Origin: Promethearchaeota archaeon
Lineage (GTDB): Archaea; Asgardarchaeota; Lokiarchaeia; Sigyniarchaeales; SOKP01
DNA length: 27,906 nt
Direction: 5' to 3'
NCBI GenBank assembly: GCA_019058015.1
Contig: JAHLWH010000217.1
Location: 1-27,906 of the forward strand
Part shown: positions 23,016-27,906 of the stretch, in pieces
Numbering within the stretch: position 1 is the first letter of the stretch
Layout: each line of letters opens with the position of its first letter
Translations under genes and position numbers: made by a program
Notes under the pieces: generated by a model
Told to the model about the DNA's origin: nothing
Databases searched by the model: none
Seen by the model: only the letters and a program-made list of their open reading frames with translations

Positions 23016-23744
23016 TTATTTCTGAAATTTTTCACGTCTTAATTGAGAACGACGTCTTTCATATCTTGGTGAGAATTGCCTTCTAGAATCAGTTCTAACT
23101 TGTTCATATCGTTGGGTTTTTGAGAATATATAATATTTTACATCTCGACTTAATTCTTTAATAATTAATTTTACCAAAAGATGAACTGGGTCTGAGATAC
23201 TTGTTCTTTGAGACATATCTTTGAAAGATTCAAATTTCTTTATATTTCTTAATTTAATTATCTCCCACATTAATTTATTCCCTATTCCTGGAATTAATTG
23301 AAGTTGGTGCAGTCTTGGTGTTATTGAAACCGAATTATTAAAAAAATATAAAAATTCTTCTGCTTTTTCTTTAATTCTTTCTTCTAGAACCGAATGCAAT
23401 AAAGCTTTAGATGTGGGAGTTAAATCATTATGATCAATTTTTTTTGTTACTTTTCCTAATTTATGAGATTCTCTGAAATCTCCGTAAATCCCTCTGTCTT
23501 GAACTTTTAAATCCGAATCTCTAATATATTCTACTTCATAAAGAACGAAATCTTCGAGACTTATTAATTGAACAATGGGTCTCTGTTTATGCATTGGCAC
23601 ATCATTTGAGAAGTGGCCATGCAAAAGAATATCAAGGATTTGAATAACTCTATCTTTCTTTATAAATTGACTTTTCCCTTTTTCTCTCCCTCTAGGAGAT
23701 TTATCTCTTCTATTTTTTGAATACCCTAAATCCCTATTACTCAA
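23016..23744 (-). CDS. DUF655 (COG1491) putative RNA-binding protein with Arg/Ser-rich terminal extensions
   Basis: ILDILLHG, FFNNSVSITPRLHQLQLIPGIG, KYYIF; canonical position between rpo4 and ksgA. Confidence 0.88.
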   Translation of the reverse strand: MSNRDLGYSKNRRDKSPRGREKGKSQFIKKDRVIQILDILLHGHFSNDVPMHKQRPIVQLISLEDFVLYEVEYIRDSDLKVQDRGIYGDFRESHKLGKVTKKIDHNDLTPTSKALLHSVLEERIKEKAEEFLYFFNNSVSITPRLHQLQLIPGIGNKLMWEIIKLRNIKKFESFKDMSQRTSISDPVHLLVKLIIKELSRDVKYYIFSKTQRYEQVRTDSRRQFSPRYERRRSQLRREKFQK

Positions 23745-23921
23745 TATAAATCAACTTAACGCTTAGAAAATTTCGCCTATATTAGTTTATCAGGAAATAT
23801 TTTTTAAAATTTCTTTAAGTTATGATTCATTCATTTTACAATAATTTTCTATAAACTATTTAAATATTTAAATCTTAATTTGGAAAGATTTGAAATAATA
23901 GAATTAGAATGCATTAAGACA

Positions 23922-24287
23922 TTATTTTGCTTTAATTTCATTTATTTTATATAAAATTTCTTGCAATTTATCTGAATCAAAATTTTTCCCTTCTGAACTT
24001 TTTTCGAAGATAGTTTTTAATTCCGGGACGGTCTGCGGATTTATATTTGCTACATTCACAGCAAAAACACGTTCAAGATTATAATCCTCCGAAAGCATTT
24101 TTATTATCTCTAAAGCTTGCTTCTCAGAAAATTTAGAAAATTTTGAAACATATTCTAATGTTATTTGCTGGAAATGAGAGATCTCTTCCGTTGTTCCTGA
24201 ATCAATAACTGTTTTTTTGAATTTTTCCATTAATTCTTTAACTTCCGGAATTGATAGAATTTTTTCATCTATTAATTTTCGACTAAT
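23922..24287 (-). CDS. rpo4: RNA polymerase subunit Rpo4 (RpoF/Rpb4); extended to putative ATT start
   Basis: SRKLIDEKILSIPEVKELM N-terminal motif, LEYVSKFSK, VANINPQTVPELKTIF; position after rpl21e. Confidence 0.9.
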   Translation of the reverse strand: MSRKLIDEKILSIPEVKELMEKFKKTVIDSGTTEEISHFQQITLEYVSKFSKFSEKQALEIIKMLSEDYNLERVFAVNVANINPQTVPELKTIFEKSSEGKNFDSDKLQEILYKINEIKAK

Positions 24288-24341
24288 TTTTAATACCCCT
24301 TTAAGATTACTAATTATGGATAAATTACGGTTTCACTCAAT

Positions 24342-24647
24342 TTAAGATAGAGCTCCGGTGCTAAGACGTAAATGTTCTTTGCCAACAATAATCATTTTTT
24401 TAGCATTTCCAATTTTTAGCTGAATCTCGTAACACCGACCACGTATCCCAATAACTGTTCCTGTTTTCCCATGAAATCGTCGATGTGGCATACCCCGTTT
24501 ATGGGCACCAGAATTTGTTATAATATCAACTTTATTTCCAATTTCAAAATCAATTAGATATTTTTCTATTGAGCCTAATCCCCGTTTTCTCACATTCTTT
24601 CTATGAAGCCTTCGAGTTTTATTTCTATATCCTTTATGTAATGTCAT
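24342..24647 (-). CDS. rpl21e: 50S ribosomal protein eL21
   Basis: KGYRNKTR, GMPHRRFHGKTGTVIG, EHLR. Confidence 0.97.
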   Translation of the reverse strand: MTLHKGYRNKTRRLHRKNVRKRGLGSIEKYLIDFEIGNKVDIITNSGAHKRGMPHRRFHGKTGTVIGIRGRCYEIQLKIGNAKKMIIVGKEHLRLSTGALS

Positions 24648-24783: not shown

Positions 24784-26040
24784 ATGCTATTAGATATTTT
24801 AGAAGAAGAAATAAAGGAAAAAATAACAATTGAAAATATTTTTAGGATCTTCAATAATTTTATTATTCCTCTCATTACAAAAGAAGAACAGGAATTTCTT
24901 GTAGAATTGGAAGACTTTTTGATAAGAGAAGTAGAGCCTAAGATAGATCTTAGCAAAGACGTCTATGAACTATTTCCAATTTTAGGAAAAGGAAATTATA
25001 TTCAAAGATTAAATCCATATGGGAATGATGACCACCAAAAATTTGGCATGCGATATGAAATGCTTCTAGCTATGGCAACTTCAATTGTTGATCCAGAACT
25101 GGACTTAGCGAGAGTAGTATCAGGTGTTATTTTTGCAAATCCATTATTCCAACATGGAAAGGGAGACCATAATTCTGAAATTATAGACCAAATTATGTCC
25201 GGAAAGAAGATTGGGGCTATATGTATAACTGAAAGGCTTCACGGGTCCGATGCGGTAAATATGGAAACTCAAGTAATAGAAGAAACGGATCATTTATTAA
25301 TTAACGGAGAAAAATTATATACTACAAATGGACCTGTAGCTGATTATTTTATTGTATATGGAGTTTCAGAACCCTCCGATCCCCGAGGCTCAATGTATCA
25401 GGTAATTGCAGAACGCGGATTTGAAGGTCTAGAAACCCACAGAATCGCCGTTCAATCGATTCCAAGGGTTCAAATCGGTCAAATACTTTTCAATTCAGTT
25501 AAAATACCTAAAAGAAATATAATTGGACCAAAAGGATATGGATATAAAAATTTATTCTCTGGATTAGTTGCAGAACGAGATGCAATCATCGGCTCAAGCC
25601 TGGGAATAAGTTGGTTAACTTCAATCACTGCACTTATTTATACAAATTTTCGGAAACAGTTTGGAAGACCCATATATGATTTTCAAGGAGTTAGTTTTCC
25701 AATTACCCAATCATTTACGGAATTAATGGCTGCCACTGAATTTGGAATTAGAAGCGCTACTGTATATAAAAAAATGTTAAAATATTTTGATGAACAAAAG
25801 TTTATTAAATATAGCGCTGCATTTAGTTCAGGAACAAAATTTCTTGCATCTAATTTAGCTCAAAAAATTTCTTATGAAGCCCAACAACTATGTGGTGGGA
25901 TTGCCTTTACGGATAATCTCAGAATAGATAAAGCTCTTGAAGTAAGTAAAGTACAAGAAATAATTGGAGGAGCAAGGAATATTCAACTACATTTGGTCAG
26001 CAGAGCAATCAGAGATATGGTCAAGAGGTTAGTATTTTAA
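24784..26040 (+). CDS. Acyl-CoA dehydrogenase
   Basis: CITERLHGSDA, NGEKLYTTNG, RKQFGRPI..FQGV, AQQLCGGIAF, IIGGARNIQ. Confidence 0.92.
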   Translation: MLLDILEEEIKEKITIENIFRIFNNFIIPLITKEEQEFLVELEDFLIREVEPKIDLSKDVYELFPILGKGNYIQRLNPYGNDDHQKFGMRYEMLLAMATSIVDPELDLARVVSGVIFANPLFQHGKGDHNSEIIDQIMSGKKIGAICITERLHGSDAVNMETQVIEETDHLLINGEKLYTTNGPVADYFIVYGVSEPSDPRGSMYQVIAERGFEGLETHRIAVQSIPRVQIGQILFNSVKIPKRNIIGPKGYGYKNLFSGLVAERDAIIGSSLGISWLTSITALIYTNFRKQFGRPIYDFQGVSFPITQSFTELMAATEFGIRSATVYKKMLKYFDEQKFIKYSAAFSSGTKFLASNLAQKISYEAQQLCGGIAFTDNLRIDKALEVSKVQEIIGGARNIQLHLVSRAIRDMVKRLVF

Positions 26041-26241
26041 AGATTTTTTTGCCTTTATTTATCTCTCAGAATAATTAAATTGTATTTCTTTCGATTTTTA
26101 ATTTAAAGTCATATGTTTCCGTTAAATGTGCTTTATTAAAAAAACTGCAATCCAGTAAAATGGAATCAAGCACAATTCGATAAATATAGATATAATAAAA
26201 GGAGCTGTTAGAGATATATCACCCTCTTGTTTATTGAAAAA

Positions 26242-26286
26242 TCTTATTGCAAAGACTTCTCTTTGAAATTCTTATTGCAAGACTTC
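26242..26286. repeat. Two-copy direct repeat TCTTATTGCAA(A)GACTTC, period 28
   Basis: Copies start at 26242 and 26270. Confidence 0.6.
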
Positions 26287-26340
26287 ACTCTATTGATACA
26301 GAATTAGTAGAACAAGATAAATCCATAAAGAAAGCAGAGA

Positions 26341-27801
26341 TTAAAACTTTATTTGATTATCATTATCATCTTCACCATCATCATCATTGTTCGATTCTTT
26401 ATTTCTTTCCTTATCTTCATTATAAATAAATCGATCAAGAGGCTTTTCGGCTTTTATATTCTTTATGTATTCACTGATGTCCCTCTTTATATATCCTTTT
26501 TCTTTAAGGTCCTTTATTAACTCATCTGTACCATTCAGAGTTTGATTGTCATTCTCAAGAATATCTTTAAGGGCGTCTAGGTCACCCTTTCTATTTAATT
26601 CGATTATTTCATCGAATCTCTCTTTATAAATTCCTTTTATTTTCATTAGCTCGGCGAAATATTTGTTGCTAATAATTATTATATTCTCTGGATACCTGAT
26701 TCTTTTATCATTTGGAAGTTCTTTAGTAAGCTCGTCCCAAAATCTATACCACTTTGTCCCGACAATAAAGGTAAGAATCTCGGGATGCTGATACTTTAAG
26801 ATTTTATCCAAAATATTCTTTTTTTCCAACAAATTTGTAAAATCGAATTGGACAAATTTTATCCGATCTAATTTTTTTAATAAATTCTCCAATTTGGGGA
26901 TTAATAAATTTCTATCTTTTAAATCTTTTAAAAGTCTTTGGAGGAATTTTGTATCATTATAAAATAACAAATCGGCACGTTTTTCACTTAGAGGCAGATA
27001 TATCCTCGGTTCCGAATAAATTTTTGGAACATCCGAAGAACTTTCTCTTCTCTTATCAAAATCTTCAGTAACTAAACTATAAATATTTTTATGAGTTTTA
27101 TTTCCTATTTCATATTTTCCATCTTGAAGAAACCTTTTTGCATATTCTTCTGGCGTTAAAATCTCTTTAGCTATCGTCCAAATCGTAGTAATGCCCACAG
27201 CATGTTTTTTTGAAATATCAATTTGTGATCCCGAATTTGGATCCTTAATATCGGCTTTTATCTTTTCTCTTACATCTTTTGGTATCTTCGGTGGAGGGGG
27301 AAACCTCTTTTCATATATTTCTGGCGTTAAAGCCTTTTTAGCTATTGCTGCAATCCCACCACTGGATACACCATGTTTTTTTGCGAGATCACCTTGCGAT
27401 CCCGAATTTGGATCCTTAATGTCAGCTATTATATTTTCTTTTATATCTTCTGGTATCTTCGGAGGAGGGGGAAACCTCTTTTCACGTTCTTCCAGCGTTA
27501 AAACCTTTTTAACTATCCTTCCAACTAAGGATTTGTTTACACCATGTTTTTTTGCGATTGCAGGTTGCGTTCCCGAATTTGGATTTTTGATGTCGGCTAT
27601 TATCTTCTTTCTTACCTTTTTTGGTATTTTCGGTGGTGGAGGAAACCTCTTTGCATAATCTTCTGGCGTTAAAGTCTTTTTAGCTATCGTCCAAATCGTA
27701 TTAATGCCCACAGCATGTTTTTTTGAAATATCACCTTGCGATCCTGAATTTGGGTCCTTGATGTCGGCTATTATCTTTTCTCTTTCATCTTTTGATATCA
27801 T
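26341..27801 (-). CDS. Tandem HTH-repeat protein with C-terminal putative PD-(D/E)xK-like nuclease domain and acidic tail
   Basis: Four 57-aa repeats, then EIGNKTH..SEPRIY..KRADLLF..VQFDFT..KILKYQ. The frame is open upstream to 27885 with a further half repeat. Confidence 0.8.
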   Translation of the reverse strand: MISKDEREKIIADIKDPNSGSQGDISKKHAVGINTIWTIAKKTLTPEDYAKRFPPPPKIPKKVRKKIIADIKNPNSGTQPAIAKKHGVNKSLVGRIVKKVLTLEEREKRFPPPPKIPEDIKENIIADIKDPNSGSQGDLAKKHGVSSGGIAAIAKKALTPEIYEKRFPPPPKIPKDVREKIKADIKDPNSGSQIDISKKHAVGITTIWTIAKEILTPEEYAKRFLQDGKYEIGNKTHKNIYSLVTEDFDKRRESSSDVPKIYSEPRIYLPLSEKRADLLFYNDTKFLQRLLKDLKDRNLLIPKLENLLKKLDRIKFVQFDFTNLLEKKNILDKILKYQHPEILTFIVGTKWYRFWDELTKELPNDKRIRYPENIIIISNKYFAELMKIKGIYKERFDEIIELNRKGDLDALKDILENDNQTLNGTDELIKDLKEKGYIKRDISEYIKNIKAEKPLDRFIYNEDKERNKESNNDDDGEDDNDNQIKF

Positions 27802-27885
27802 CGGTAGTGGAGGAAACCTCTTATTCTTTTCTTCAGGCCTTAAAACCTTTTTAGATATCCTAACAATAGTTTTATATGTATAAAC
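27130..27885 (-). repeat. Coding tandem repeat, 171-bp unit, 4 copies plus one partial copy
   Basis: Anchor AAACCT recurs at 27130, 27301, 27472, 27643 and 27814 (exact 171-nt spacing). Confidence 0.95.
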
Positions 27886-27906
27886 TTATATTATTTTGTT
27901 ATAAAT

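Follow-up and report, generated by a model that had tools for sequence, protein, structure and literature searches.

Type IIS restriction enzymes and nickases such as FokI and Nt.BspD6I carry an N-terminal recognition part built from several helix-turn-helix (HTH) or winged-helix domains and a separate C-terminal PD-(D/E)xK domain, and in FokI the recognition part consists of three subdomains. A comparable layout is encoded at one end of contig JAHLWH010000217.1 of a Promethearchaeota (Asgard) archaeon, the whole of which (27,906 nucleotides, nt) was analysed and is called the window here: a gene on the reverse strand specifies four tandem HTH units of 57 amino acids (aa) followed by a C-terminal domain (C-domain) that is predicted to have a divergent PD-(D/E)xK, or restriction-endonuclease-like, fold. 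This protein and its relatives have no sequence similarity to the Type IIS enzymes, possess one to nine homologous tandem repeats instead of three distinct subdomains and, unlike Type II and Type IIS restriction-modification systems, are limited to one archaeal family, with no methyltransferase seen near their genes. Chains of Nt.BspD6I appear among the weak Foldseek rows for the full-length model (E 0.19-0.62), and the small subunit of R.BspD6I is among the structural matches listed for the C-domain.

Other described systems share single aspects of the window family. With the PD-(D/E)xK superfamily (McrC, Can1/Can2, NucC, Bse634I/Cfr10I/NgoMIV, Bax1 and the restriction-like endonuclease of R2) the C-domain shares the predicted core fold, and in its model strand 2 opens with an aspartate and strand 3 contains an acidic residue, but it differs in its threonine for the motif lysine, in two inserted helices and in the lack of any sequence or profile match in Pfam, NCBIfam or the PDB. 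Transcription activator-like effector (TALE) and C2H2 zinc-finger arrays likewise combine a constant scaffold with variability at a few predicted nucleic-acid-facing positions and a repeat number that varies between paralogues; the likeness concerns a possible way of working and not membership, for the folds are unrelated, and TALE repeats have 33-35 aa, two helices and a repeat-variable diresidue, whereas the window units have 57 aa and three helices plus a fourth and gave no Pfam TALE match. Tandem HTH binders (Myb R1R2R3, Tc3/Sleeping Beauty, the paired domain, DUX4) also consist of consecutive tri-helical units with short linkers, but they have two or three units against up to nine in the window family and no PD-(D/E)xK fusion except in R2, where Myb and nuclease lie far apart. 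In FASTK/RAP proteins a helical repeat array precedes a PD-(D/E)xK-like domain, according to PMC12687428; their repeats, however, are helical-hairpin solenoids acting on organellar RNA, and no homology to them was detected. The window family thus resembles Type IIS enzymes in architecture and zinc-finger and TALE arrays in evolutionary style, and is a member of none of them.

We read the HTH-linked members of the family as array-guided DNA endonucleases and give this reading an even chance. A first-pass annotation of the DNA had proposed that the array targets a nuclease to DNA. That idea receives partial support here, by computation only, from a predicted HTH fold, a predicted nuclease-like fold and the diversification of contact positions.

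Anatomy of the gene

The window is one entire contig of a 3.84-Mb genome (283 contigs, 94% complete) and has a G+C content of about 28%. The gene, the parts of its product and the contig end are as follows:

26341..27801 (-), open reading frame of 486 aa with four HTH units, nuclease-fold domain and acidic tail; stop codon at 26341-26343
27631..27801 (-), HTH unit 1, residues 1-57; model helices 4-15, 22-29, 33-43 and 46-52
27460..27630 (-), HTH unit 2, residues 58-114, net charge +12; AlphaFold2 model
27289..27459 (-), HTH unit 3, residues 115-171; VIA-align matches to a serine recombinase HTH, Tc3, GcrA and Myb
27118..27288 (-), HTH unit 4, residues 172-228, with helix 3 almost the same as in unit 1; AlphaFold2 model
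27802..27885 (-), partial unit (helix-3-to-linker half), in frame upstream of the ATG and bounded by a TAA at 27886-27888; from the translation
26467..27132 (-), C-domain, residues 224-445, predicted divergent PD-(D/E)xK / restriction-endonuclease-like fold; predicted local distance difference test score (pLDDT) 95.1, predicted template modelling score (pTM) 0.91
26794..27093 (-), span of the conserved polar set H237, E264, D277, D320, T322, K333 and K336, a putative active site; from alignment and model
26344..26466 (-), C-terminal tail modelled with low confidence, residues 446-486, with an acidic end; net charge of the tail -5, isoelectric point (pI) 4.4; AlphaFold2 model
27872..27906 (no strand), contig end including the TAA, not matched by other assemblies (Logan contigs); probably an assembly artefact or strain variant

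The repeat is far beyond chance: Tandem Repeats Finder gave a period of 171 nt with 4.3 copies over 27129-27859 (76% matches, score 833). The ATG of the 486-aa frame lies at 27801, and the remnant of a fifth unit continues in frame up to the TAA, 28 codons upstream. Compared in pairs, the four full units are 54-77% identical as proteins and 70-86% identical as DNA; in helix 3 they read GINTIWTIA, NKSLVGRIV, SSGGIAAIA and GITTIWTIA, and the residues after the Q are GD, PA, GD and ID. The array is basic, with a net charge of +17 and a pI of 9.8. All the repeat sequences and variable strings quoted in the first-pass annotation were recovered on translating 26341-27906 (-). Its description of 57-aa units on a near-invariant scaffold with PPPPK linkers holds for the scaffold, with four full units and a partial fifth, but not for the linker in general: RFPPPPKIP is present at three unit junctions of the window gene and PPPP is peculiar to that gene, only F-P being conserved family-wide, so that a rigid proline linker acting as a spacer had to be dropped as a family trait.

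Fold of the repeat units

The AlphaFold2 model of the window protein, built from an alignment of 98 sequences, has a mean pLDDT of 89.6 and a pTM of 0.68, and in it each of the four units forms a three-helix HTH with a short fourth helix. When single units were compared with known HTH domains by VIA-align, they gave Z scores of about 5 and a root-mean-square deviation (rmsd) of 2-3 over 42-50 residues, values for which the program warns that a Z below 8 may reflect just a common arrangement. The matches included the HTH of serine recombinase 2r0q (Z 5.7, rmsd 1.4 over 42 residues), Tc3 transposase, GcrA, Myb repeats and homeodomains; superpositions of two units at a time were poor (rmsd 7.6-12.2). 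The tri-helical model of every unit and the DNA-binding HTHs among its structural neighbours support the earlier supposition that the units fold as HTHs.

At the sequence level, one paralogue (P0002) reached Pfam HTH_23 with 37.7 bits against a cut-off of 24.6, and a profile of 21 units compared with PDB sequences produced weak HTH rows only, the best with an E of 0.021. By fold, or weakly by sequence, the units resemble the HTHs of transposases (Tc3, IstA, Sleeping Beauty). The window protein also scored 33.4 bits against a cut-off of 23 with Pfam Bot1p (PF12298), a eukaryotic mitochondrial regulator or ribosomal protein family, at profile positions 10-55 of 172. We do not take this as membership of that family, since three repeat stretches add up to the score; the match is probably a generic HTH-like resemblance.

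Variation among the units

In the window gene the nonsynonymous divergence (dN) of the 10 helix-3 codons was 0.67-1.10, against 0.14-0.26 elsewhere, in five of the six unit pairs (small numbers). Helix 3 thus exceeds the remaining codons three- to fivefold in dN, and units 1 and 4 have a nearly identical helix 3. A hidden Markov model of the unit detected it in 47 of the 132 family proteins, with up to seven units per protein, and the number of units, which the first-pass annotation had suggested comparing among homologues, ranges from 1 to 9, with nine in the intact orthologue. Over 106 full units the family-wide entropy peaks at positions 32 and 22 and is smallest in the hydrophobic core.

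The variation was also compared within 19 non-redundant arrays with three or more units, where the five most variable positions are 32, 36, 22, 33 and 37. By the model boundaries, positions 32, 33, 36 and 37 are positions 1, 2, 5 and 6 of helix 3, which we take to be the classical base-contact positions of HTH domains, and position 22 is the N-terminus of helix 2. The four helix-3 positions were more variable than the rest in 18 of the 19 arrays, and random sets of four positions reached the observed mean in 1 of 100,000 draws, a figure that has to be read with the test set having been chosen after the variability ranking was seen and with related arrays not being independent. At the variable positions the ratio of within-protein to between-protein differences is 0.90-1.00, against 0.4-0.7 at scaffold positions, and this within-array diversification is the pattern of zinc-finger arrays. 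The original statement that variability is focused on the recognition helix and just after the Q is therefore true within arrays but not family-wide, where most surface positions vary.

Fold of the C-terminal domain

Folded alone from 107 sequences, the C-domain gave a model with the scores listed above, in which a helix (2-31) is followed by three strands (38-39, 55-58 and 93-99), a second helix (104-114) and a further strand (119-125), an arrangement that corresponds to the alpha-beta-beta-beta-alpha-beta core of the PD-(D/E)xK superfamily. In a VIA-align comparison with 48,161 chains, 13 chains had Z scores of at least 5 and none reached 8. The best 50 rows (Z 4.0-5.6) are nearly all of the restriction-endonuclease fold, headed by McrC (6hz4_M; Z 5.6, rmsd 3.7 over 116 residues), and 22 of the 50 are titled endonuclease or nuclease, including Bse634I, BglII, PspGI, PfoI, Cfr10I, BsaWI, EcoRII, NgoMIV, BamHI and AgeI. 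Most of the other rows (McrC, Can2, NucC, Cdn1, Card1, Cap4, SgrAI, R2, influenza PA) are presumably carriers of the same fold, and the TATA-binding protein (TBP)-interacting protein TIP26 is also among the matches (Z 5.2). The weak Foldseek rows for the C-domain start with Bax1, R2 and MspJI. It is the uniformity of the VIA-align match list, and no single score, on which our prediction of a divergent PD-(D/E)xK / restriction-endonuclease-like fold is based.

Sequence comparisons gave no Pfam match above cut-off for any of the six paralogous C-domains, no match of the C-domain profile to PDB sequences (best E 0.78) and nothing significant in NCBIfam, PADLOC and PHROGs scans of the window protein and short family members. 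The view that no characterised family has this architecture agrees with the lack of a match in these five collections. As for the nuclease-like nature of the domain, which had also been put forward, the modelled fold and the nearly invariant acidic residues and lysines of the HTH-linked members speak for it, while the Z scores below 6 and the replacement of the motif lysine by threonine leave it qualified.

Conserved polar residues and domain architectures

The 107 aligned C-domains were split by architecture, and the 43 linked to HTH units were compared with 19 of a membrane class. The residues of the polar set are distributed as follows:

H237: HTH-linked 42 of 43; membrane class 0 of 19
E264: HTH-linked 41 of 43; membrane class 2 of 19
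D277: HTH-linked 43 of 43; membrane class 4 of 19
D or E at 320: HTH-linked 43 of 43; membrane class 0 of 19
T322: HTH-linked 41 of 43; membrane class 14 of 19
K333: HTH-linked 43 of 43; membrane class 0 of 19
K336: HTH-linked 42 of 43; membrane class 9 of 19

In the model, D277 is at the N-terminus of the second strand, D320-F-T322 are in the third, and K333 and K336 are on the next helix. A FastTree phylogeny of 100 domains, rooted at the midpoint, places the membrane class as one clade nested among the HTH-linked forms. Retention of the polar set in the HTH-linked proteins and its loss in this derived clade argue, as far as sequence conservation can indicate it, for a putative catalytic site that is working in the former.

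Proteins of the membrane class consist of a signal peptide, Laminin_G_3, DUF2341 and Ig-like domains, one transmembrane helix, a helical linker and then the C-domain, which implies that the domain is cytoplasmic in them, where it may be a binding partner of the soluble HTH-linked form. A domain without the polar set is the last part of the giant surface proteins P0034, P0080, P0040, P0063, P0086, P0092, P0050 and P0038, which reach 3037 aa. In its intact form, the domain precedes an RNase_T exonuclease in P0084 (43.2 bits) and P0047 (26.3 bits) and occurs with TFIIB cyclin repeats in P0100 (85.1 bits), fusions that support a nucleic-acid role for it. A divergent member in the genome of the window (G000, contig C184, 12276-13979 (-)) has a TFIIB-like tail by eye.

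Two paralogues, C45 7920-11465 (-) and C111 2-3016 (+), have very long acidic low-complexity N-terminal regions, with net charges of -71 and -73 over the first 400 aa, and an N-terminal module of about 125 aa ahead of the HTH array. In the window protein and its orthologue the acidic region is at the C-terminus instead. These acidic segments could be DNA-mimicking and autoinhibitory.

The 5' end of the gene

Logan contigs from four public runs were compared with 26000-27906, and the repeat region is broken in them into pieces of 39-270 nt. Two records diverge from the window after 27871 and do not match its last 35 bases, which include the TAA: in one the repeat resumes after 45 letters, exactly one 171-nt period on, and the other has 27 further letters, in frame, that by hand translation resemble helix 2 and the turn of a unit. 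Both differ from the window at 8-11 positions and may be strain variants. Given this disagreement of the last 35 bases with other assemblies, the gene in the window probably lacks part of its 5' region, where the contig stops.

Six close paralogues are present in the same genome, and all six meet a contig end on their 5' side, with the breaks falling within repeats or near-identical acidic N-terminal regions. A transposon reading of these contig-end positions was rejected, as the breaks lie inside the genes' own repeats. The closest homologue, with 62% identity across the C-domain, comes from another genome of the genus. Its gene is intact and encodes 927 aa: an N-terminal module of 125 aa with one module-terminal unit is followed by eight canonical units, and the C-domain and a long acidic tail complete the protein.

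Distribution and genomic context

A profile of the six paralogous C-domains retrieved 126 proteins (E <= 0.001) from among 1,835,955,588 representatives. The relatives are labelled Promethearchaeota or Promethearchaeia, apart from one membrane-class protein labelled Candidatus Lokiarchaeota, and none of the HTH-class protein clusters that were looked up is named. Among close relatives, the C-domain was found in 12 of the 24 further genomes from the same family and in none of 16 from other families of the order; in 301 genomes across the phylum (E <= 1e-5) it was found in 27 of the 68 further genomes from the family and in 1 of 232 outside it, the single exception being a fragment in a genome with 7% contamination. 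The protein family is thus specific to one family-level lineage of Promethearchaeota. Within the genus, a genome has between 1 match, in this case a copy interrupted by a stop, and 8. Searches of a library of open-access papers, without supplements, found no description of a family with an HTH array and this C-domain.

The window gene has genes for an acyl-CoA dehydrogenase, an Rpb4-like protein, L21e and DUF655 as neighbours. An intact 1286-aa copy (P0002) on a 451-kb contig (G004) lies among PALP, PyrI, NFACT and GDPD genes, and an intact 460-aa copy with the N-terminal module, two units and the C-domain lies among unrelated genes on a 194-kb contig (G014). No integrase, intron, intein, mobile-element or defence-island gene was found nearby, terminal inverted repeats not having been searched for, and a pattern scan of viral contigs found no relative. 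Neither a tRNA gene nor an Rfam family at gathering score is present in the window (1-27906).

Proposed mechanism and alternatives

If the HTH-linked proteins are array-guided endonucleases, each unit would insert helix 3 into the major groove and read a short subsite, and the basic array (+17 in the window protein) would align several subsites into a long composite site. The array would thereby tether the C-domain, which would cut the DNA with a metal bound by D277 and the D or E at 320, and K333 or K336 of the following helix would stand in for the (D/E)xK lysine. The protein could serve in defence against foreign DNA, as a selfish nuclease or in genome maintenance, and we lean towards a conflict-driven role because of the copy number of 1 to 8 among genomes of one genus and the diversified contact positions.

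Several points weigh against an array-guided endonuclease. A sequence-specific nuclease that is neither regulated nor paired with a protecting methylase would be dangerous to the cell that carries it, and no methyltransferase was found near the window gene, of which one side is visible, or near the intact copies. The canonical position of the (D/E)xK lysine is occupied by a threonine, T322, and the two helices inserted between strands 2 and 3 are atypical for PD-(D/E)xK domains. Fold likeness is middling, since no VIA-align Z score reaches 8 for the units or the C-domain, and Foldseek comparison with the PDB gave no E <= 0.001 for either the full-length or the C-domain model; the window protein's own HTH matches in Pfam also lie below their cut-offs. 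As regards DNA reading, the array of the orthologue has a net charge of just +2, unit surface positions beyond helix 3 vary across the family, and the helix-3 test is subject to the choice of positions and the relatedness of arrays mentioned above. Finally, the window copy itself may have lost its function by truncation.

The main alternative, which we consider unlikely, is a regulator or chromatin protein that binds DNA through the array and has a non-catalytic C-domain serving as a dimerisation, partner-binding or ligand-sensing module. The fold is non-catalytic in other proteins, TIP26 among the matches (Z 5.2) being relevant here, and the 19-member membrane clade keeps the domain without the polar set; the absent (D/E)xK lysine, the housekeeping neighbours without a methylase and the one relative with TFIIB repeats would likewise suit a regulator. 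Such a role would not explain why two acidic residues, two lysines, a histidine and a glutamate are near-invariant in the 43 HTH-class domains and lost in the membrane clade, as expected of a working active site, and the RNase_T exonuclease fusion suggests nucleic-acid cleavage. That the helical units are a protein- or RNA-binding scaffold, FASTK-like, with a PD-(D/E)xK (RAP) domain, appears quite improbable. It has a precedent for RNA work in the helical repeats with a PD-(D/E)xK-like domain described in PMC12687428, the pTM of 0.68 hints at some fixed packing between units, and Bot1p, the sole Pfam match above cut-off, is a mitochondrial ribosomal regulator family. The units are, however, three-helix HTH bundles with DNA-binding HTHs as neighbours and not helical hairpins, and the Bot1p score is summed over three repeats. 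Their hypervariability also falls on helix-3 positions that we take to be the classical base contacts.

Mobility and decay concern the history of the genes. A nuclease of a selfish or mobile element, homing-type or transposase-like, whose mobility is reflected in the contig-end copies, would be in keeping with six close paralogues that all lie at a contig end, with a copy number that varies between genomes of one genus and with the resemblance of the units to transposase HTHs. We regard it as very improbable: the contigs break within the repeats or acidic N-termini of the genes and not at element ends, the intact copies on the 451-kb and 194-kb contigs lie among housekeeping or unrelated genes, the 3' flanks are unrelated, and the pattern scan for viral relatives and the inspection for integrase, intron and intein context were negative, within the limit given above for inverted repeats. 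The window copy could also be a decaying or truncated pseudogene, independently of what the family does, as an in-frame TAA lies within the unit remnant 28 codons before the ATG, the N-terminal module of intact homologues is missing, and the sole copy in one genome of the genus is broken and contains a stop. This is improbable, though, with a 486-aa frame that is intact, with all conserved C-domain residues present and with other assemblies that run past 27871 into a further unit, so that the stop may be an artefact of the contig end.

The endonuclease reading can be carried further than we think likely, to arrays that, beside zinc fingers and TALEs, would form a third natural class of modular and evolvable DNA readers. 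In this view each unit would recognise a short subsite by four or five hypervariable residues, Asgard genomes would shuffle and diversify the units, and the array would aim a PD-(D/E)xK nuclease at foreign or selfish DNA; the protein would then be a germline-encoded immune nuclease, re-programmable by unit swaps, and the membrane clade may bind and control the soluble nucleases. Were DNA recognition to proceed one unit at a time, the array would be a novel programmable DNA-recognition scaffold from nature, supplied with its own nuclease, in the archaeal lineage closest to eukaryotes. Read cautiously, the family is a new lineage-restricted PD-(D/E)xK branch without a Pfam model, built from known parts, in which contact residues of HTH repeats are diversified in a zinc-finger-like way, an unusually clear sign of modular diversification, and the same domain, its polar set lost, was recruited to the cytoplasmic tails of giant surface proteins.

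Other genes

The genes adjoining the window gene at 23016-24647 (-) belong to archaeal information processing and encode ribosomal protein L21e (named by eye), an Rpb4-like RNA polymerase subunit (PF03874) and DUF655. Beside the 460-aa homologue in G014, a gene at L029 3588-4688 (-) encodes a protein of 366 aa with three tandem repeats of about 57 aa that end in a CPxC-type motif, and by eye its C-terminal part recalls Vsr/DUF559-type endonuclease-fold domains.

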